Part shown: positions 6,727-41,178 of the stretch, one piece after another
Numbering within the stretch: the first letter of the stretch is position 1
Layout of the letters: the number at the start of each line of letters is the position of its first letter
Made by a program: the position numbers and the translations under genes
Assembly: GCA_038893995.1 (NCBI GenBank)
Contig: JAWAQK010000002.1
Coordinates: 20,529-84,528 of the forward strand
Direction of reading: 5' to 3'
From: Candidatus Thorarchaeota archaeon
GTDB lineage: Archaea > Asgardarchaeota > Thorarchaeia > Thorarchaeales > Thorarchaeaceae
Length of the DNA: 64,000 bases
Notes under the pieces: generated by a model
Database searches by the model: none
The model's input: the letters and a program-made list of their open reading frames with translations, nothing else
Told to the model about the DNA's origin: nothing

Positions 6727-8958
6727 TTGACGGGGATGGTCAAGACGCTTGTAGGAGACCTTCCACTGAACCGAAGAGTCGTTGATGTTCTCAGAAACTT
6801 AGGTATCAATGAACTCTATCCTCCGCAAGAGCTCGCGTTTCGAAGCGGTGTCTTGGAGAGGAGAAACCTGGTACTATCCGCTCCCACAAGTTCAGGCAAG
6901 ACACTGGTTGCCGAGATATGTGCAGTTCACTCGATCCTGGAGCGTGGAGGCAAGGCCCTATACCTTGTTCCATTGAAATCTCTCGCGCGTGAGAAACTGT
7001 CGGAGTTTGCAAAGTACGAGTGTCTCGGGTTCTCCACAGTGGTTTCGGTCAGCGACTATGAGTCGTCACGACCAGAACTCGCAGATGCCGACATACTCAT
7101 TCTGACTAACGAGCGTGCTGACTCACTGATCCGTCAGAGGCCTGATTGGCTGAACGATGTCTCTGTGATGATTGCAGACGAGATTCACTTGGTTGGCGAC
7201 AAGACTCGTGGTCCAACGCTAGAGATGGTCATCGCTTGCATGAAACGTCTCTGTCAGGGCCTGCAGATCATAGCGCTCAGTGCAACAATACCCAATGTTG
7301 ATCAGATAGGTCGATGGCTAGATGCAGTTGTTGTCTCCAGTAACTGGAGACCTGTACCGCTTAGGGAAGGTGTACTGCTCGACAACGAGATCCACTACAG
7401 CGATTCATCAATCAGGGTCCTGACAGATACGGGTCGAACTGGCATAGAGAGTCTAATACAGACAGTCTTGAACGATGGTGGTCAAGTCTTGGTCTTTGTT
7501 TCGAGCCGTCGATCTGCAGTTTCACTTTCGAGAAGACTAGCTCCCTTGGCTGCATCACATCTGAGCGATGACGAACGCCATCAGCTATCCCTATATTCCA
7601 GAAGAATCAGTGTCGATGCATCTTCCCCTGTCTCCTCATCGGTTCTTCGCGAGATGATCGAACGTGGTTTGGCCTTTCATCATGCAGGACTATCAGATCG
7701 TGAGAGAGCAACAGTGGAGGATTGTTTCCGAAAACGTCTGCTAAAGATCATTGTTGCTACCCCTACACTTGCAGCAGGGGTCAATCTTCCGGCCCGCTGT
7801 GTCATAGTTCGTGATTACCGCCGCTTCGAGGATGGGTTGGGTAACAGACCTATCCCTGTATTGGAGTACAAGCAAATGGCTGGTAGGGCTGGCCGTCCGC
7901 TCTACGATACTTGTGGTGAAGGTATACTGATTGCACAGACCCCTGAGGAGCTCGATTTCCTTCATGACAACTATGTACTTGCTAATGCTGAGCCAACCGT
8001 TTCAAGGCTAAGGTCCACAAGGGCCCTTCGTTTTCATCTATTGGCCGCGATAGCTGGAGGGCTATCTAGAAACCTAGAGGAGATTCATGATCTTTTGGGC
8101 TATACCCTGTACTCTGTTCAGTTTCCCAGGCCTCGAATTGAAACAAGGCTGTCCCTAGCTCTGGAGTTCCTCGAACGCAAGGGCTTTGTGAAACACGAGT
8201 CTGGACAAATACTCCCCACATCCTTTGGACTTCGAACGTCTCGTCTCTACATCGATCCGCTGACAGCTGTCCTGTTCAGAAGTCGATTGCCAGACTCAGA
8301 TGACATTCCGGTCATTGGCCTCCTACATCTACTATGTCACACTCCAGATCAACCACTTGCGTATGTTTCACAGTCCGAGATCGATGAGTACTCCAATCTT
8401 CTCGAGTCATACATCGATGACCTCATTTTGAGCCCACCCTCTGAAGGCCCTCGATACTACCGATTTCTGTGCGAGTTGAAGACTGCATGCATACTTCACG
8501 ACTGGATATCCGAGAAGTCAGAACGCGAGATTACGGATCACTATAACATAGGAATGGGTGACGTCCATCGATATGTCGAGTCCACCCAGTGGCTGCTCTA
8601 CTCTGCAGGAGAGATTGCTCGTGTGCTAGGAATCCAAAAACCAGTGAAACTCCTACAAGAGATCCGACAACGCGTGAAGTACGGCGTCAATGCCGATCTT
8701 CTCGAGCTAGTTTCATTGAGGGGGGTGGGACGTGTCAGAGGGAGAATGCTGTACCAGCATGGACTGAAACGGCTTCAAGACCTATGTATGGCACCAGTTT
8801 CTCAGATAGCACGTGTACCGACTATCGGTCAATCACTGGCTGAATCCATAAAGCAGCAGCTGAGTGGTGTTGACAACCATGTCGGTTCACCGCCCCTAGA
8901 TGATGCCACTTTCGACAGCGACTACACAGGTCAGACTGTGCTCGATGACTTCGACTAG
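6727..8958 (+). CDS. hel308: Ski2-like DNA helicase Hel308/Hjm
   Basis: 743 aa with motif I APTSSGKT, DEIH box, motif VI QMAGRAGR, and the C-terminal ratchet/HhH region typical of Hel308. Confidence 0.88.
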   Translation: MTGMVKTLVGDLPLNRRVVDVLRNLGINELYPPQELAFRSGVLERRNLVLSAPTSSGKTLVAEICAVHSILERGGKALYLVPLKSLAREKLSEFAKYECLGFSTVVSVSDYESSRPELADADILILTNERADSLIRQRPDWLNDVSVMIADEIHLVGDKTRGPTLEMVIACMKRLCQGLQIIALSATIPNVDQIGRWLDAVVVSSNWRPVPLREGVLLDNEIHYSDSSIRVLTDTGRTGIESLIQTVLNDGGQVLVFVSSRRSAVSLSRRLAPLAASHLSDDERHQLSLYSRRISVDASSPVSSSVLREMIERGLAFHHAGLSDRERATVEDCFRKRLLKIIVATPTLAAGVNLPARCVIVRDYRRFEDGLGNRPIPVLEYKQMAGRAGRPLYDTCGEGILIAQTPEELDFLHDNYVLANAEPTVSRLRSTRALRFHLLAAIAGGLSRNLEEIHDLLGYTLYSVQFPRPRIETRLSLALEFLERKGFVKHESGQILPTSFGLRTSRLYIDPLTAVLFRSRLPDSDDIPVIGLLHLLCHTPDQPLAYVSQSEIDEYSNLLESYIDDLILSPPSEGPRYYRFLCELKTACILHDWISEKSEREITDHYNIGMGDVHRYVESTQWLLYSAGEIARVLGIQKPVKLLQEIRQRVKYGVNADLLELVSLRGVGRVRGRMLYQHGLKRLQDLCMAPVSQIARVPTIGQSLAESIKQQLSGVDNHVGSPPLDDATFDSDYTGQTVLDDFD

Positions 8959-10010
8959 TCAAAGAACCAGTCGTGGAGCTTCCTTTCTACGTAGTCGGCC
9001 AGCCTATCGGTCTCCTCAATCCGACCACTGGTCTTCACATGCCCCTCATCATAGTCCGTTACATCTCTGCCTGTCAGTTCCTCGACTAGGTTCAGTGATG
9101 CCCGGGCCATGACGTCAAGGTTATACCCCCCTTCTAGAAAGAAGGCCACTCTTCCTCTTGAATGGCTCTTTGCAAGCCTGGTGATTCTACGATTCATGGC
9201 CGCTATTCCACGGAGAGATAGACCGAGGTTGGTCAGCGGATCATCGAAGTGGCAGTCAAATCCCGCCGACACCAGCACGAATTCTGGCTTGTATACCTCC
9301 CCAATGGGCTCGATCACTCTTTCGAAGAGCAACTCGTAGTCCCGGTCTCCTGCGCCAGGATGGAGTGGCAGATTCACGTTGTACCCCCTCCCCTTTCCTT
9401 CGCCAATCTCGTCAGGATATCCAGTGCCGGGAAACAGCGTTCGTCCGTCCTGATGCAGTCCCACATAGAGCACTTGCTCTGTATCGTAGAATGCATTCTG
9501 AGTGCCGTTACCGTGGTGAGCATCGTAGTCTACTATCATTACCCGCTTGGTATCGAGCTCGTCTACCAGGTATTGTGCTGCCACAGCTATGTTGTTTATG
9601 AAACAGAAGCCGAGTGCTCTGCTCCTTTCAGCATGATGCCCGGGAGGTCTGCACATCACGTAGGCATTGTTACTAGCGTCTTGTCGGATCCTTTTGACCG
9701 CTTCTATACCTCCGCTCGCTGCGAGGAGCGCCGCCTCGTACGTATACGGGTTCCCCGCTGTGTCAGGTGTGAAGTATCCCCCTCCCATCTTCGACATTCT
9801 TTCTAGGCTCTGCAGATAGTCCTTACCATGAATTCGCAGCAGCGGTCGAGTGTCTGGCAGAGTTGGAGTCAACAACCTGACTTCCCGCTCCAGTAGGCCC
9901 GCCTCTCGGATCGTTTCGAGGCTTCTCTGGACCCTCTCCGGCCGTTCAGGATGACCGTGAGATATAACATGTTTGAGAAACATCTCATGGAAGACCAAAT
10001 CAGTGACCAT
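8955..10010 (-). CDS. Histone deacetylase-family protein (HDAC/AcuC/acetylpolyamine amidohydrolase-like)
   Basis: 351 aa with the HDAC signature PPGHHA, DYDAHHGNGTQ and FLEGGYN. Confidence 0.8.
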   Translation of the reverse strand: MVTDLVFHEMFLKHVISHGHPERPERVQRSLETIREAGLLEREVRLLTPTLPDTRPLLRIHGKDYLQSLERMSKMGGGYFTPDTAGNPYTYEAALLAASGGIEAVKRIRQDASNNAYVMCRPPGHHAERSRALGFCFINNIAVAAQYLVDELDTKRVMIVDYDAHHGNGTQNAFYDTEQVLYVGLHQDGRTLFPGTGYPDEIGEGKGRGYNVNLPLHPGAGDRDYELLFERVIEPIGEVYKPEFVLVSAGFDCHFDDPLTNLGLSLRGIAAMNRRITRLAKSHSRGRVAFFLEGGYNLDVMARASLNLVEELTGRDVTDYDEGHVKTSGRIEETDRLADYVERKLHDWFFD

Positions 10011-10096
10011 TCTCTACTCTCCTGGAACTCGGACCAGCATTTATCATACTCCTGTGACAACCTTTATTTTTACTTACACATCGAATCACAACACGT

Positions 10097-10232
10097 GGGT
10101 CGGTAGTCTAGCTTGGTATGATACTTGCTTGGGGTGGCCTGTTATTAGTTAGGGCCTCCAATATGCAAGAGGACGGGCGTTCAAGACCGCATGCGACTCA
10201 CGCATGCTCTGGAATTCGCCCCCGGCCCACCA
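10097..10232 (+). tRNA. tRNA-Pro(GGG) with two introns: 29 nt at position 37/38 and 30 nt inside the T-loop
   Basis: Acceptor GGGTCGG pairs with CCGGCCC, then A and an encoded CCA. Anticodon stem CTTGC/GCAAG is perfect; the loop TTGGGG is interrupted by a 29-nt insert containing a GGCC...GGCC hairpin. T-stem GGGCG/CGCCC flanks TTC[30 nt]AATT; the insert holds a 7-bp palindrome GCATGCG-ACTCA-CGCATGC. Confidence 0.6.
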
Positions 10233-10331
10233 CCTTTCCCGATAGCTCACAGATTTCTCCAGTCTGAATCTCTTGATGCGACAACGTTCATCACTAATGT
10301 TATATTCAAGTACCATGGTCCTAGGCATGAT

Positions 10332-10437
10332 GCCGGGGTGTCCCAGCGGCTACGGAGGCGGTCTCGAAGCCATTCAGATGCGGCGATAGAACCGCTGTGC
10401 TTTGCACTCGTGGGTTCGAGTCCCATCCCCGGCGCCA
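10332..10437 (+). tRNA. tRNA-Ser(CGA), class II, with a 21-nt anticodon-loop intron
   Basis: Acceptor GCCGGGG/CCCCGGC plus G and an encoded CCA. Anticodon stem GCGGT/ACCGC, loop CTCGAA, then a 21-nt insert. Long variable arm GTGC-TTT-GCAC. T-arm GTGGG-TTCGAGT-CCCAT. Confidence 0.8.
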
Positions 10438-10470
10438 CCCGATTTCCATGGTATTGTCCACCTATTACAC

Positions 10471-10480
10471 TCTCTTTTCT
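10471..10480 (+). terminator. Oligo-T tract downstream of tRNA-Ser(CGA)
   Basis: TCTCTTTTCT about 35 nt after the tRNA 3' end; archaeal terminators are T-rich. Confidence 0.3.
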
Positions 10481-10512
10481 AGTATTGTGCAAAGCAATCT
10501 CATGGTGGCCTG

Positions 10513-10800
10513 ATGGACTCCATAGGGCAAATGGTCAAGATGGGTCTTAGAGAAAGAGGCATCATCTGTCACTCTGCCTATGTGATTCATGAGGAGTCGG
10601 GATCGATCATACTCCTCTCATTTCCCGCCAAGGAGGGCAATTCCCTTACTCCTGCACGTGTGGAACGTGCACTGAACGCGTTGGGACTGGGTGAATTCTC
10701 AGTGCATAGTGATTTTGCTAGGCTGAGCGCAGCTTTCCTACACCTAGAGGTGTCCATGGGTTCAAGGACAGAATCCGAAAGAGAGAGCAGTGCTCGCTAG
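10513..10800 (+). CDS. Hypothetical small protein (95 aa)
   Basis: The only ORF in 10440-11015 and it does not overlap a better gene; no recognisable motif. Confidence 0.25.
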   Translation: MDSIGQMVKMGLRERGIICHSAYVIHEESGSIILLSFPAKEGNSLTPARVERALNALGLGEFSVHSDFARLSAAFLHLEVSMGSRTESERESSAR

Positions 10801-11015
10801 GGACCGCATCAACACAGTCTTTCCTTGCGTTGGAGCATGTCTCTAGTTCCAACTAGAGAATCCGCCCTTGCTATCTCATACGGCGGCGACTGAGTATTGC
10901 TGACCTGTGTGGACGTCAATTGACAGATTGGACTCCAACCATAAGTGCCGGCTGCCTGAACAACTTTCATGACCTATGGGGTCCATTAGTGCAGTTTGCA
11001 TGACTGTGCTTTTGA

Positions 11016-11160
11016 TGGCGGGCGCGCCAGGATTTGAACCTGGGACATCTTGCTTGCTTCAAGTGACCGTAGAAGACCATTCAAGGATCACAGACCGAAG
11101 GCAAGCGCCCTATTGGCTCTTCGAGGACAATGTCCCGAATCCAAACTAGACTACGCGCCC
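11016..11160 (-). tRNA. tRNA-Arg(TCG), probable, with about 70 nt of insertions: about 25 nt next to the D-stem/position 26 and about 40 nt at 37/38
   Basis: Minus-strand acceptor GGGCGCG/CGCGCCC with G and an encoded CCA. Intact T-arm CCAGG-TTCAAAT-CCTGG. Anticodon stem CTTGC/GCAAG with loop CTTCGG interrupted by about 40 nt. A second insert lies between D-stem 3' strand GGAC and the anticodon stem. Confidence 0.55.
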
Positions 11161-11217
11161 ACACCTACTGAGCTTGGATGTTTACCATAAGTACTTTGTC
11201 CACCTACTCATACAACC

Positions 11218-11457
11218 TTACCTTAAGCCCAACTCCTTCTGCCATGCTTCAATGAAGTGTTCCAGAGATCTATCGTAGGAAGACTCCGCATCCTTGGGGA
11301 ACAGACAACCGGGCAACTCACGATGTGACCAGTGGTACTGCAGACAATCACAACAACGTCCCTTTCGTGCACAGCCAGGATAGCTGCAGGTACAGTGTTT
11401 CAGATTCTTTTCAATCTTGCATTCCGCCATGGACATCCCGATCCCATCACAAAACAA
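11218..11457 (-). CDS. Small cysteine-rich protein with a C..GCAxxGxCC.C motif (putative redox/metal-binding)
   Basis: 79 aa containing CTCSYPGCARKGRCCDCLQYH, which matches the C_GCAxxG_C_C-type signature. Confidence 0.45.
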   Translation of the reverse strand: MFCDGIGMSMAECKIEKNLKHCTCSYPGCARKGRCCDCLQYHWSHRELPGCLFPKDAESSYDRSLEHFIEAWQKELGLR

Positions 11458-11512
11458 GTGAAAGGACCTTAAAACAGATTAGGTAACACATGGTCCGGAA
11501 CTCAGCAAGCAC

Positions 11513-12277
11513 ATGACATGGGAAAGTCGGATTGAAAAAGAGAAAGGAGACCGCCAAGTCATCAGTCTGGACCAGATGCAGTCTCTCGAGAGGATCATTG
11601 TACAAGGTTTCAACAGGAAGAGGTTTGTGATTCGGCGCAGGTTCCGAAGCAGAAAGAACACCGTCCTGCACATAAGAGTGATGTCGGATAGTGGGCCCGA
11701 TGAAGATATTGTTGCAAAGTTGTTTGAGAAGAACACCCTCAGTGTTGAACGCGATGTCCTCCTGGGTTGCACGGAAGCGGGGATTCCTGTCCCCAGGTTG
11801 ATTGCTGCTGACAACGACGTGATACTGATGGAGTACGTCCCAGGTGCGAACATGGTGGACCTAATCAATTGCAGCTACGCGGAATCGATGATAGACGCGC
11901 TTGCAGAATGGTACCACAGGTTCCACCACTCAATGAAACGAAACAGGGGCGACTCAATCCTGAGGAATTTTATCTGGACGCACCGAGGAGTGGTTGGGGT
12001 CGACTTTGAGGAGTCAGCATCAGGGGAATGGATTGACGATATCGCAGGGATTGCTGCGAGTCTTCTCGATACAGATCCAGTATTCGACGTGCGCAAGAGG
12101 GCTTTGGCCTGGCGGTTACTTGACAGATACCTGGCATGTCTGCGGGAGTGCAGGACCCGCGAACTCGAAAGAGTGTTCGTTGAGAGAGTAGCAGACTGTC
12201 TGTCACAGACCGCGGGGAAACGCAACAGCGTCGATATCCACCTGCTCTCTGAACGAGTCAGACGGAGAGGATTCTGA
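11513..12277 (+). CDS. Atypical protein-kinase-like protein (RIO/Bud32/Kdo-kinase-like fold)
   Basis: 254 aa with a hinge-like VILMEYVPG, a catalytic-loop-like DSILRN (D-x4-N) and a DFG-like VGVDFEES. Confidence 0.45.
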   Translation: MTWESRIEKEKGDRQVISLDQMQSLERIIVQGFNRKRFVIRRRFRSRKNTVLHIRVMSDSGPDEDIVAKLFEKNTLSVERDVLLGCTEAGIPVPRLIAADNDVILMEYVPGANMVDLINCSYAESMIDALAEWYHRFHHSMKRNRGDSILRNFIWTHRGVVGVDFEESASGEWIDDIAGIAASLLDTDPVFDVRKRALAWRLLDRYLACLRECRTRELERVFVERVADCLSQTAGKRNSVDIHLLSERVRRRGF

Positions 12278-12372
12278 GACTTGGTGAAACTGAAAAGTCC
12301 AGTACCGCCGATATCACAGTGCCATTCGAGGCCCCGGGGATGGGGGGCCCCGAACTTGGCCATTTGCAGTCG

Positions 12373-13062
12373 CTACCTAGCTGAGCGAGCTACTCGTTCG
12401 CGTTCGTCCTTTCTAGAAACTGCAAAGCTCGCAAGATCTCCCTTGTAGGCCAGAAGCAACTCATCTGCAATGCATTCTTCGAAGGACTTTGCACTGTTGT
12501 GCGTGTTTCTTGATGCCCCTACTACCAGATATCTGAGGGCGATGTCGATTCTACGCTGAGGTCCTATGTCCACGGATCTCGGGTATGCCATACCCCCATA
12601 TGATATTCTGGTCGTTTCCTCGGCAGGAGCTGCGTTCTCGATTGCAGTCACAAGAACCTGAATTGGATTCATTCCAGTGCGGTACTCTATCATCTCAAAG
12701 GCTCTTTTCACGAGTCCTATGGCTCTCGCCTTCTTTCCTGCATTGCGGCCAGTCCGCGTCTTCTTCTCTCGTCTATTGCCTCCGCTTAGGAGCTTGTTCA
12801 CAAATCTCTCAACAATCGGCACCTGCGACTTGTGAAACTTGCGATTTGCATGTCGCCCCGATGTATGTGGTATCAGCATGGGCTTGAGCGAGATATAGCG
12901 TCTGAGACCGACATCTTGCACTTGAACATCATCGGTACTCCATCTTCCAAACAGCAGGAACTTTTCTGCACTGCTATCCCCTGAATGCTGAGTGTCTGTT
13001 TCAATCGGTTTCTCGCCATTCTCCTCTGTAGACTCAGGGGTTCTTCTCTCATCTTCCGTCAT
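12373..13062 (-). CDS. rps7: 30S ribosomal protein S7 (uS7) with an N-terminal extension
   Basis: 229 aa, LLFGRWSTDDVQVQDVGLRRYISL ... conserved S7 core; immediately downstream of S12. Confidence 0.85.
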   Translation of the reverse strand: MTEDERRTPESTEENGEKPIETDTQHSGDSSAEKFLLFGRWSTDDVQVQDVGLRRYISLKPMLIPHTSGRHANRKFHKSQVPIVERFVNKLLSGGNRREKKTRTGRNAGKKARAIGLVKRAFEMIEYRTGMNPIQVLVTAIENAAPAEETTRISYGGMAYPRSVDIGPQRRIDIALRYLVVGASRNTHNSAKSFEECIADELLLAYKGDLASFAVSRKDERERVARSAR

Positions 13063-21841: not shown

Positions 21842-21972
21842 TGGCGGGCTCGGCGGGATTTGCTCCAATACCGAGACACGCTCGGTCCGATTGAACCCGC
21901 AACCCTCAGGTGTCTCTCTCGGTTTCCCTTGAGATAAAAGCCTGCTGCGCTGCCTGGTTGCGCCACGAGCCC
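21842..21972 (-). tRNA. tRNA-Lys(TTT) with two introns: about 23 nt at 37/38 and about 31 nt in the T-loop
   Basis: Acceptor GGGCTCG/CGAGCCC with G and an encoded CCA. D-arm GCGC-AACCAGGCA-GCGC. Anticodon stem GCAGG and loop CTTTTA, then an insert with a TCTC...GAGA hairpin. T-stem GCGGG/CCCGC flanks TTCAA[about 31 nt]AT. Confidence 0.6.
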
Positions 21973-22291: not shown

Positions 22292-22427
22292 GCCCCTGTG
22301 GTGTAGTCCGGCTAGCATACTAGACTGTCACACTTGGTTGACAGGTGTCCCAAGGGCTAGTCTGGTAACCCGGGTTCAAATTGGGTTGTGGTAAGCACAT
22401 CCCATGAAGGTCCCGGCGGGGGCGCCA
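22292..22427 (+). tRNA. tRNA with two insertions: about 25 nt in the anticodon loop and 30 nt in the T-loop. Anticodon is tentatively CAC (Val)
   Basis: Acceptor GCCCCTG/CGGGGGC (one G-U pair) with G and an encoded CCA. T-stem CCGGG/CCCGG flanks TTCAAAT[30 nt]. Best anticodon arm is AGACT-GTCACA-[25 nt]-T-AGTCT. The D-loop is long and the variable loop would be 6 nt, so the isotype is uncertain. Confidence 0.45.
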
Positions 22428-37445: not shown

Positions 37446-38599
37446 CCCTGTACAGCCTCCCTTATGCACTCCTCCACGGTCCTTATCTCCGTCTTGAACT
37501 TGTTCTTCCCACGAGCATAGAAGCATGCCTTTGCTGAGTCTGTCATCAGACCCCTGAACATTCCCTTGAGTGGTGCAACTGCGCAACAGGCATCACTCAC
37601 TAGGAATGCTCCCGCTTTCTCAATCATGTCGTAATAGCCCATCTTGACGGCAAGCTCCTTCGTAGGTTTGGCCGTCGTTATCCACACAGTCTTTCCGTGT
37701 GCCACATGTTTCCCCCTAAGAAGTCGGGCAATCTCAGCGATTTCAGCTATGCTTGCATGCGGGCAACCAATGCTGATGAAGTCTATGTCTGCACCCTCGT
37801 CGTCCAGTTCCGCCTTTGCTTTCTCCAGGTCTTCCTGTGAGATAGTTTCGACCTTCTCTGGAATAGTTGTGCGGTTTGGTGTGATCCCCTCGATATGAAA
37901 GATCGCAACTCCTCCGTATGTTGCAATGGACGCGCAGAGCGCCTTCAGTTCATCGGTCGAGGCGCGTGATATGCCCTCAATGTACGGGATCGAATTTCTG
38001 GTCCTGTTACCAATTACCTGCCCGAGTAGTCCGAAGTCCACTGTATTCTCGAGCCTTGCCTCAACCAAGTACCTGACTTGAGCCATCCTATTCTTGTCTA
38101 GGTGAAGACCATATTCTGCTGTTCGGCCAGTCAGAGCTGCAGCGATTGCACTCGGTCCGCCCTCGCGGTTCGTATAGGCCCCAATGACGGAGTTCGCAAA
38201 ACAGACGGCGGAGGACTCTGCCCATGCAATGTGTTCGCCATAGTGTGGCAGATTACCGATCAGGTATGGTGTGCATGTGCAAGTCGTAATGACGCCCATT
38301 CTCCTGAATGCATCTATTACTCTCTCTTGGTCGCGTGCAAATTCCTCTGATATTCCGTGCTTTTTCCATTCTGTCAGGTCCATCCCTGCTGGGTTGAGGG
38401 TCGTCAGGACGCGTACTTGTCCGTCCTCCGCCATTTCTGCAAGGTACTCAAGGCCATACTCCCCTAGGTTGTCATAGGACACCCCTGCTATCTGAACACT
38501 GGAAACAGGTATGAGTCTTGTGGCACCATAGATCTCTCCCAATGCCGTAATGATCTCCATTGCCTTCCGGGTGGCCTTTCCGTACTCTCCATTCAGCAT
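37442..38599 (-). CDS. AcnX large subunit (DUF521 aconitase-X catalytic domain): phosphomevalonate dehydratase large subunit
   Basis: 385 aa of the aconitase-X family (SVQIAGVSYDNLG ... CTCTPY ... ISIGCPHAS). Confidence 0.75.
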   Translation of the reverse strand: MLNGEYGKATRKAMEIITALGEIYGATRLIPVSSVQIAGVSYDNLGEYGLEYLAEMAEDGQVRVLTTLNPAGMDLTEWKKHGISEEFARDQERVIDAFRRMGVITTCTCTPYLIGNLPHYGEHIAWAESSAVCFANSVIGAYTNREGGPSAIAAALTGRTAEYGLHLDKNRMAQVRYLVEARLENTVDFGLLGQVIGNRTRNSIPYIEGISRASTDELKALCASIATYGGVAIFHIEGITPNRTTIPEKVETISQEDLEKAKAELDDEGADIDFISIGCPHASIAEIAEIARLLRGKHVAHGKTVWITTAKPTKELAVKMGYYDMIEKAGAFLVSDACCAVAPLKGMFRGLMTDSAKACFYARGKNKFKTEIRTVEECIREAVQG

Positions 38600-41100: not shown

Positions 41101-41178
41101 TGGTGGGCCGGGCCGGATTTGAACCGGCGGCCTCTTGGTCCCGAACCAAGAATCATAGCCAATCTAGACCACCGACCC
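41101..41178 (-). tRNA. tRNA-Pro(CGG), intronless
   Basis: Acceptor GGGTCGG/CCGGCCC with A and an encoded CCA. D-arm GTCT-AGATTGGCTA-TGAT. Anticodon arm CTTGG-TTCGGGA-CCAAG. T-arm GCCGG-TTCAAAT-CCGGC. Confidence 0.9.

Follow-up and report, generated by a model that had tools for sequence, protein, structure and literature searches.

Positions 10097–10232 on the forward strand of the stretch of DNA analysed here (64 kb; hereafter, the window) very probably constitute a functional, single-copy tRNA-Pro(GGG) gene of a Thorarchaeia-related Asgard archaeon, interrupted by two endonuclease-type (BHB) introns. A preliminary description of this interval had proposed a tRNA-Pro(GGG) with one intron at position 37/38 and a second in the T-loop. 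The letters of the interval match that description, with an encoded CCA and two inserts, and the proposal is supported on two counts: once both inserts are excised, the remaining sequence folds as a canonical cloverleaf that ARAGORN recognizes as a tRNA-Pro(GGG) of 77 nt, and a BHB is found at both junctions. The exon–intron anatomy, BHB geometry, orthology and covariation are shown by the present analysis. In archaeal tRNA splicing, the BHB is recognized by the endonuclease EndA and cut in each bulge, and the exons are ligated by RtcB. Relaxed motifs and non-canonical positions require an (αβ)2 or ε2 EndA with a specific loop, and among archaeal enzymes the (αβ)2 endonuclease of Asgard archaea is the one most closely related to the tRNA-splicing enzyme of eukaryotes. 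In our BHB scan, each strand had to contribute 4 nt to the central helix and, directly after them, a 3-nt bulge; the cut was placed after the second bulge nucleotide.

The mature tRNA is encoded in three forward-strand exons. Exon 1 (10097–10134; tRNA positions 1–37) was parsed by hand and agrees with the ARAGORN cloverleaf obtained after splicing; it holds the 5′ strand of the acceptor stem, the D arm (GTCT/TGAT), the 5′ strand of the anticodon stem and the loop TTGGGG with the anticodon GGG. Exon 2 (10164–10185; positions 38–59) comprises T38, the 3′ strand of the anticodon stem (GCAAG), the variable loop AGGAC, the 5′ strand of the T stem (GGGCG) and TTCAAG of the T-loop, whereas exon 3 (10216–10232) supplies T60, the 3′ strands of the T stem (CGCCC) and the acceptor stem (CCGGCCC), and the discriminator A73, which is followed by CCA in the DNA itself (10229–10232). 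The acceptor and anticodon stems had been described as perfect. This holds for the anticodon stem (CTTGC/GCAAG), in which every pair is perfect; the acceptor stem, GGGTCGG (10097–10103) paired with CCGGCCC (10222–10228), has six Watson–Crick pairs and a T4·G69 wobble. The strands of the T stem (GGGCG/CGCCC) stand 37 nt apart (10180–10216), equal to a 7-nt loop plus 30 nt. The spliced anticodon loop, TTGGGGT, has 7 nt with T33, the anticodon GGG and G37, which identifies the isoacceptor. As had been noted, the acceptor and D arm are shared with the intronless tRNA-Pro(CGG) gene at 41101–41178 on the reverse strand, and they are also common to 52 Thor tRNA-Pro(GGG) genes. Exon 1 equals that of the Thor orthologs except for A26, and the 73-nt spliced tRNA differs at three positions from an intronless ortholog, L110.

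Standard tools do not call the gene as it stands. Neither ARAGORN in its default configuration (bacterial mode, no introns) nor Rfam in gathering or E-value mode reported a tRNA at 10097–10232. With its threshold lowered, ARAGORN -i produced a model with a false 3′ end inside intron 2 (10097–10201), together with approximately 70 spurious calls. When only the T-loop insert was cut out at the BHB-predicted sites, however, ARAGORN -i recognized the gene as tRNA-Pro(GGG) and reported its canonical intron as i(38,29). Negative Rfam results in gathering mode are unreliable for tRNAs, because the L110 tRNA is itself missed in that mode: a search of its 8-kb locus gave zero matches, whereas a 300-nt slice searched in E-value mode gave 54.6 bits on the tRNA family RF00005 (gathering threshold, 29). 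The L110 gene lies at 1009–1082 on the reverse strand of its locus and is lost to the speed filters of the gathering search. No intronless tRNA model fitting the region was found anywhere in 9950–10300, and the 64-kb window contains no second tRNA-Pro(GGG). The preliminary description had named two grounds for rejecting its proposal, namely the lack of a BHB-compatible fold at either junction and a better intronless model nearby; neither applies, because the BHB scan found a compatible fold at each junction and the 9950–10300 region holds no intronless model that fits better. The RNAfold z-score of the whole precursor was modest, at −2.5.

Intron 1 (10135–10163, forward strand; 29 nt) occupies the canonical 37/38 position, as established by the BHB scan and by the i(38,29) call of ARAGORN -i. 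The 29-nt insert that had been reported to follow TTGGGG, with its GGCC…GGCC hairpin, is seen at exactly these coordinates. Its motif has the strict hBHBh′ form, in which two 3-nt bulges enclose a 4-bp helix and further helices flank both sides. The central helix, TTGG (10129–10132) with CCAA (10158–10161), pairs at four of four positions, and the bulges are GGT (10133–10135) and TAT (10162–10164). The 5-bp anticodon stem acts as outer helix, and the inner helix can be drawn either as 2 bp or as GGCC/GGCC interrupted by a 1-nt bulge. An intron at this position is present in every tRNA-Pro(GGG) ortholog except one.

Intron 2 (10186–10215, forward strand; 30 nt) is placed at T-loop position 59/60, where the only in-frame BHB candidate was found. 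The frame TTCA-AG^A…TGGA-AT^T (hyphen, end of the central-helix segment; caret, cut) is the only one with two 3-nt bulges around a 4-bp helix resting on the T stem. Its central helix, TTCA (10180–10183) with TGGA (10210–10213), is a perfect 4 bp, the bulges are AGA (10184–10186) and ATT (10214–10216), and the T stem, with its normal 5 bp, forms the outer helix. Because a CC/TC 2×2 mismatch separates the central helix from the 7-bp hairpin that follows, the inner helix is not contiguous and the motif is a relaxed BHB: it matches an accepted relaxed form (hBH, HBh′ or BHL; here hBH/BHL-like) and falls short of strict hBHBh′. Cutting after the second nucleotide of each bulge yields the mature T-loop TTCAAGT. 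The intronless ortholog has this loop too, as do 19 of the 20 orthologs with a 37/38 intron only. Shuffling the T insert of the window produced an in-frame BHB in 123 of 5,000 shuffles.

The preliminary description had also drawn attention to a palindrome, GCATGCG-ACTCA-CGCATGC, and had taken it to form the central helix of a splicing motif. The palindrome is present (10189–10207, forward strand), but it forms the distal hairpin of intron 2, with 7 bp and a 5-nt loop; being a loop-capped hairpin, it was rejected as the central helix, which is TTCA/TGGA. It was likewise rejected as a repeat element, as the window holds no other exact copy and the sole further match (37755–37773) has two mismatches. 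The hairpin occurs in all low-energy folds of the T arm and stands where orthologous introns have the h′ helix, but shifted by 2 nt on each strand. Folding the T arm with RNAfold, as had been proposed, gave a divided answer: a BHB conformer does exist, at −18.9 kcal/mol, but the minimum free energy (MFE) structure, at −22.3 kcal/mol, pairs differently, through TTC:GAA and AGA:TCT, leaving 2-nt bulges. This puts the BHB conformer 3.4 kcal/mol above the minimum, and its central-helix pairs reach an ensemble probability of about 10% or less. A suboptimal fold at −20.9 kcal/mol retains the central helix and the 3′ bulge.

These features bear on where the second junction lies. The T-loop had been read as TTC[30 nt]AATT, which corresponds to 56/57, and an alternative is that the gene does have two introns with the T-loop junction at 56/57, 57/58 or 58/59, each of which would give a mature loop of TTCAATT. 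Deletion of 30 nt at offsets 3–5 indeed always leaves this 7-nt loop, which ARAGORN accepts; moreover, 58/59 is the commonest T-loop position among the Thor orthologs and is also used by the tRNA-Lys gene in the window, and the BHB at 59/60 is both relaxed and distinct from the MFE fold. However, no frame other than 59/60 provides a 4-bp helix with two 3-nt bulges and any outer helix, even when one mismatch is allowed. This disposes of a BHB at 56/57, and a junction at 58/59 fails too, since it would need GTTC to pair with CTGG in the central helix. The loop TTCAATT occurs in no ortholog, whereas TTCAAGT, the product of cutting at 59/60, is the commonest mature loop. We therefore regard a junction elsewhere in the T-loop as quite improbable and retain 59/60 for intron 2.

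To place the gene in its evolutionary context, we examined orthologs. Over 7 kb, the window is 99.96% identical to the NCBI MAG contig JAWBPJ010000033.1 (GCA_038825165.1). A degenerate D-arm pattern run against one genome per species recovered 117 loci, nearly all labelled Thorarchaeota or Promethearchaeota, with a few labelled Hermod-, Hod- or Heimdallarchaeota or just uncultured archaeon. At approximately 45 loci, again nearly all labelled Thorarchaeota or Promethearchaeota, the order Hel308 helicase–histone deacetylase (HDAC)–tRNA-Pro(GGG) is the same as in the window. The HDAC of the window is 51–59% identical to those of the syntenic loci, with the lineage of the window on its own long branch. 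Given the shared gene order and this degree of HDAC identity, we take these tRNA-Pro(GGG) genes to be positional orthologs. On the strength of tRNA similarity and of synteny with the labelled MAGs, the window probably comes from a Thorarchaeia-related Asgard archaeon; an origin in Thermoproteales was rejected because the genome scan matched almost exclusively Thorarchaeota and other Asgard MAGs and the synteny agreed. The set analysed comprised 53 tRNA-Pro(GGG) genes, including that of the window and its near-identical copy (L001). One gene (L110) is intronless, 20 have the 37/38 intron only, and 31 of the 53 combine the 37/38 intron with a T-loop intron of 28–30 nt.

For 30 of these 31 T-loop introns, all but that of L099+, a position could be assigned: 23 lie at 58/59 and seven at 59/60, the window and L001 being among the seven. 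The two positions are associated with different architectures. At 58/59, G53-TTC pairs with GAAY to make the central helix, and a T stem of 4 bp in a shifted register serves as outer helix, whereas at 59/60 TTCA pairs with TGRA or TGAG and the normal T stem takes the outer position. The 59/60 architecture is also found, with compensatory changes, in L015, L027, L052, L075, L081 and L120. Applied to both groups, a single cleavage rule yields TTCAAGT or TTCAAAT. A joint MAFFT alignment of the T-intron genes followed exon homology and broke the BHB register, and for this reason the genes were split into the 58/59 and 59/60 groups. Among the 20 distinct sequences of the 58/59 group, 89.7% of the cells are paired, against 26–55% with slid partners, and six pairs have changed on both sides. 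The six sequences of the 59/60 group behave likewise, with 95.6% paired cells against 36–46% for slid partners and eight pairs changed on both sides. The T-loop intron sequences are unrelated between clades and the BHB pairing is kept. Overall, an in-frame BHB is present in 29 of 30 distinct genes with a T insert, compared with 1.02 expected from shuffles, a pattern of compensatory conservation.

The variant of intron 2 carried by the window has only one counterpart, in the near-identical record L001, and among the 29 orthologous BHBs it is the only one with an inner length of 0. A metagenome scan for nearer relatives of this lineage recovered three loci, none of which has the same T-loop intron. 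With no independent relatives found, the variant is without covariation support of its own. On a neighbour-joining tree of the HDACs the T-loop intron states are patchy; L014 and L015, for instance, are alike in their 37/38 introns and differ in the position and sequence of their T-loop introns. This distribution suggests repeated gain, loss or sliding. We accordingly advance, as a tentative reading that we favour slightly less than its negation, that one Hel308–HDAC–tRNA-Pro(GGG) locus in Thorarchaeia-related Asgard archaea, at which the T-loop intron is absent, at 58/59 on a register-shifted T stem or at 59/60 on the normal T stem, with unrelated sequences and a patchy distribution, records recurrent gain, loss or 1-nt sliding within a single Asgard lineage, the copy in the window being a relaxed variant in mid-drift. 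As a separate observation, the 683-bp contig JAGXOC010000290.1 (L099) holds two tRNA-Pro(GGG) genes on opposite strands. One has a 37/38 intron only; the other, on the plus strand, has a 30-nt T-loop insert in which no recognizable BHB, and no BHB frame, was found. The pair may represent a mis-assembly, a mixture of strains or a decaying copy.

The gene lies in a neighbourhood (window 6727–13062) that comprises a Hel308-type helicase (6727–8958, forward strand), a class I/II histone-deacetylase-family protein (8955–10010, reverse), the tRNA cluster, a weak RIO/APH-like kinase match below the Pfam cut-offs (11513–12277, forward) and ribosomal protein S7 (12373–13062, reverse); in the matching NCBI contig, MCM lies farther upstream. 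A putative archaeal BRE/TATA promoter box, AACCTTTATTTTT (10059–10071, forward strand), is located approximately 34–26 nt upstream of the mature 5′ end. The motif AAYNTTTATYTT (10059–10070; approximately 34 nt upstream) is found at an equal distance in most orthologs and in the three metagenome relatives, and this TTTAT box is consistent with an archaeal BRE/TATA promoter. A bacterial promoter and terminator scan was uninformative for archaeal sequence. In one Thor subclade (L003, L004, L009, L039, L057, L066, L068–L070 and L096), the TTTAT box lies approximately 25 nt farther upstream, about 55 nt from tRNA-Pro(GGG), and the extra leader contains a conserved inverted repeat, CATGAG…CTCATG, just 5′ of the mature end. 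This repeat may be a leader-processing structure.

The gene might instead be a pseudogene, with a T-loop insert that is unspliceable and a tRNA gene that is disabled or decaying. Two observations could be read in this way: the T-loop BHB is imperfect, without a contiguous inner helix, and standard tRNA finders leave 10097–10232 uncalled. Against decay, however, none of the four stems is damaged and the exons match those of orthologs at 70 of 73 positions; the locus is syntenic and conserved, as is the promoter box; and the window offers no other tRNA-Pro(GGG). In addition, orthologs in dozens of MAGs have kept T-loop introns with compensated BHBs, and further tRNA genes of the window share the same build. 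A pseudogene is thus very unlikely, and a functional tRNA-Pro(GGG) remains our reading.

A second way to dismiss the gene would be to treat the region as protein-coding and the tRNA-like fold as incidental. Open reading frames (ORFs) of 49–119 aa do overlap the interval (10118–10267 and 10191–10550 on the forward strand; 10149–10328 on the reverse strand), and the preliminary description had judged two overlapping ORFs almost certainly spurious. That judgement stands: the NCBI record calls no gene at the interval, and the Pfam scan, which covered the two longer ORFs nearby, one of 119 aa (10191–10550, forward) and one of 81 aa (10247–10492, reverse), returned no match. The 119-aa ORF also runs through a second tRNA gene, tRNA-Ser(CGA), and conservation among orthologs tracks the tRNA exons and the RNA pairing, not a reading frame. 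A protein-coding reading of 10097–10232 is excluded for practical purposes.

The window contains at least six tRNA genes, five of six with introns and four of six with two, so the two-intron tRNA-Pro(GGG) is one instance of a genome-wide habit. The tRNA-Ser(CGA) gene (10332–10437, forward strand), 100 nt downstream of tRNA-Pro(GGG), has a 21-nt anticodon-loop intron whose central BHB helix pairs at three of four positions; an Rfam gathering search of the whole window misses it, and it scores 36 bits in E-value mode. The tRNA-Arg(TCG) gene (11016–11160, reverse strand) combines an anticodon-loop intron at approximately 11055–11094 with a 27-nt D-loop BHB intron at 11114–11140 (outer helix, 4 bp; inner helix, 6 bp). 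This gene is mis-called as tRNA-Pyl(CTA) by ARAGORN -i and missed by Rfam in gathering mode. In tRNA-Lys(TTT) (21842–21972, reverse strand), a 23-nt 37/38 intron (21912–21934) is accompanied by a 31-nt T-loop intron at 58/59 (21860–21890); the T-loop motif is an in-frame BHB in which GTTC/GAGC forms the central helix and the outer helix, shifted in register, has just 2 bp. Rfam finds the gene, with a score of 38.9 bits, by looping out the two inserts. The tRNA-Asp(GTC) gene (22292–22427, forward strand) has a T-loop intron at 59/60 (22381–22410) in a strict, in-frame hBHBh′ motif, TTCA-AAT…TGAA-GGT, with an inner helix of 4 bp, as well as a 29-nt intron in the anticodon loop, on its 3′ side; ARAGORN places the latter intron at 40/41, and default scans leave this gene uncalled.

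These observations suggest a pathway by which tRNA-Pro(GGG) would mature. That the gene is transcribed, which enzymes process it and where they actually cut are inferences. Transcription would be directed by the TATA-like box approximately 30 nt upstream and would give a precursor of about 136 nt. The anticodon arm of the precursor would fold into a strict hBHBh′, and the T arm could adopt a relaxed BHB consisting of the T stem, the TTCA/TGGA helix and the 3′ bulge ATT; the 5′ site AGA would sit within an internal loop that the 7-bp hairpin closes. An EndA of the (αβ)2 type with an L1 loop, as reported for Asgard archaea, would cut after the second nucleotide of each bulge and would thereby excise 10135–10163 (37/38) and 10186–10215 (59/60). 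An RtcB-type ligase would then connect the three exons; the product would be a 73-nt tRNA followed by its encoded CCA and having the T-loop TTCAAGT. One earlier study reports (αβ)2 EndA carrying the L1 loop in Asgard archaea, and also that a mini-helix of the hBH type, modelled on the 59/60 intron of ARMAN-2 tRNA-Cys, is cut by the (αβ)2 enzyme of A. pernix and not by loop-less enzymes (PMC5829648). In two reviews, 59/60 and 56/57 are listed among non-canonical intron positions and multi-intron tRNAs are covered (PMC4090602, PMC4033280).

For annotation, the practical consequence is that the genome would seem to lack tRNA-Pro(GGG) if BHB-aware tools were not used, because ARAGORN and Rfam miss the gene; the same problem affects at least three further tRNA genes of the window, which standard finders overlook or call wrongly. 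The Thorarchaeia-related lineage joins the Asgard groups with intron-dense tRNA genes, and the tRNA-Pro(GGG) locus provides a clean orthologous series in which to study how non-canonical introns turn over and which substrates the Asgard (αβ)2 endonuclease tolerates. If the interpretation of gain, loss or sliding is true, the locus would be a natural system for BHB intron movement and for the tolerance of Asgard EndA towards degraded motifs.

Multi-intron tRNA genes were reportedly described by Sugahara et al. in 2007 and 2008 in Thermoproteales and other Crenarchaeota. Like the gene in the window, these combine a 37/38 intron with a short non-canonical BHB intron in a strict or relaxed hBHBh′ motif, with splicing by a broad-specificity (αβ)2 EndA, as would apply in the window too. 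The host differs: that of the window is probably a Thorarchaeia-related Asgard archaeon, not a crenarchaeote. Intron transposition has been described in Thermoproteales. In the window, by contrast, the introns of different tRNAs show no likeness by eye, and hence there is no sign of transposition. A parallel to intron 2 is the 59/60 intron of ARMAN-2 tRNA-Cys, which interrupts the same point of the T-loop and is relaxed, with one side lacking a flanking helix or bulge (PMC5829648). That substrate was cut experimentally by the (αβ)2 EndA of Aeropyrum pernix (PMC5829648). The two introns differ in that the ARMAN-2 intron lies in another tRNA of a DPANN lineage whose native enzyme is of the ε2 type, and intron 2 of the window has a 5×2 internal loop.

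A further match is with the intron-rich tRNA sets of Asgard archaea themselves. Asgard genomes in which 92–95% of the tRNA genes contain introns, many of them with several non-canonical ones, were reported in 2024 (PMC11291895, with Supplementary Data 4). The sets of Atabeyarchaeia and Freyarchaeia resemble the window in having introns in most tRNA genes, many at non-canonical positions and several per gene (PMC11291895), and in those sets, as in the window, the extra introns are commonly missed by tRNA finders. PMC11291895 and PMC5829648 catalogue other classes, with Thor SMTZ1-83 surveyed by Kaneta et al.; the syntenic T-loop intron of tRNA-Pro(GGG) in Thorarchaeia and its 58/59 versus 59/60 polymorphism are not described in the portions consulted. 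Two-intron layouts have been well documented before, in Asgard archaea as in other archaea, and the gene is real but ordinary: its mechanism, insertion position and phylogenetic context all have published precedents, and it leaves current understanding unchanged.
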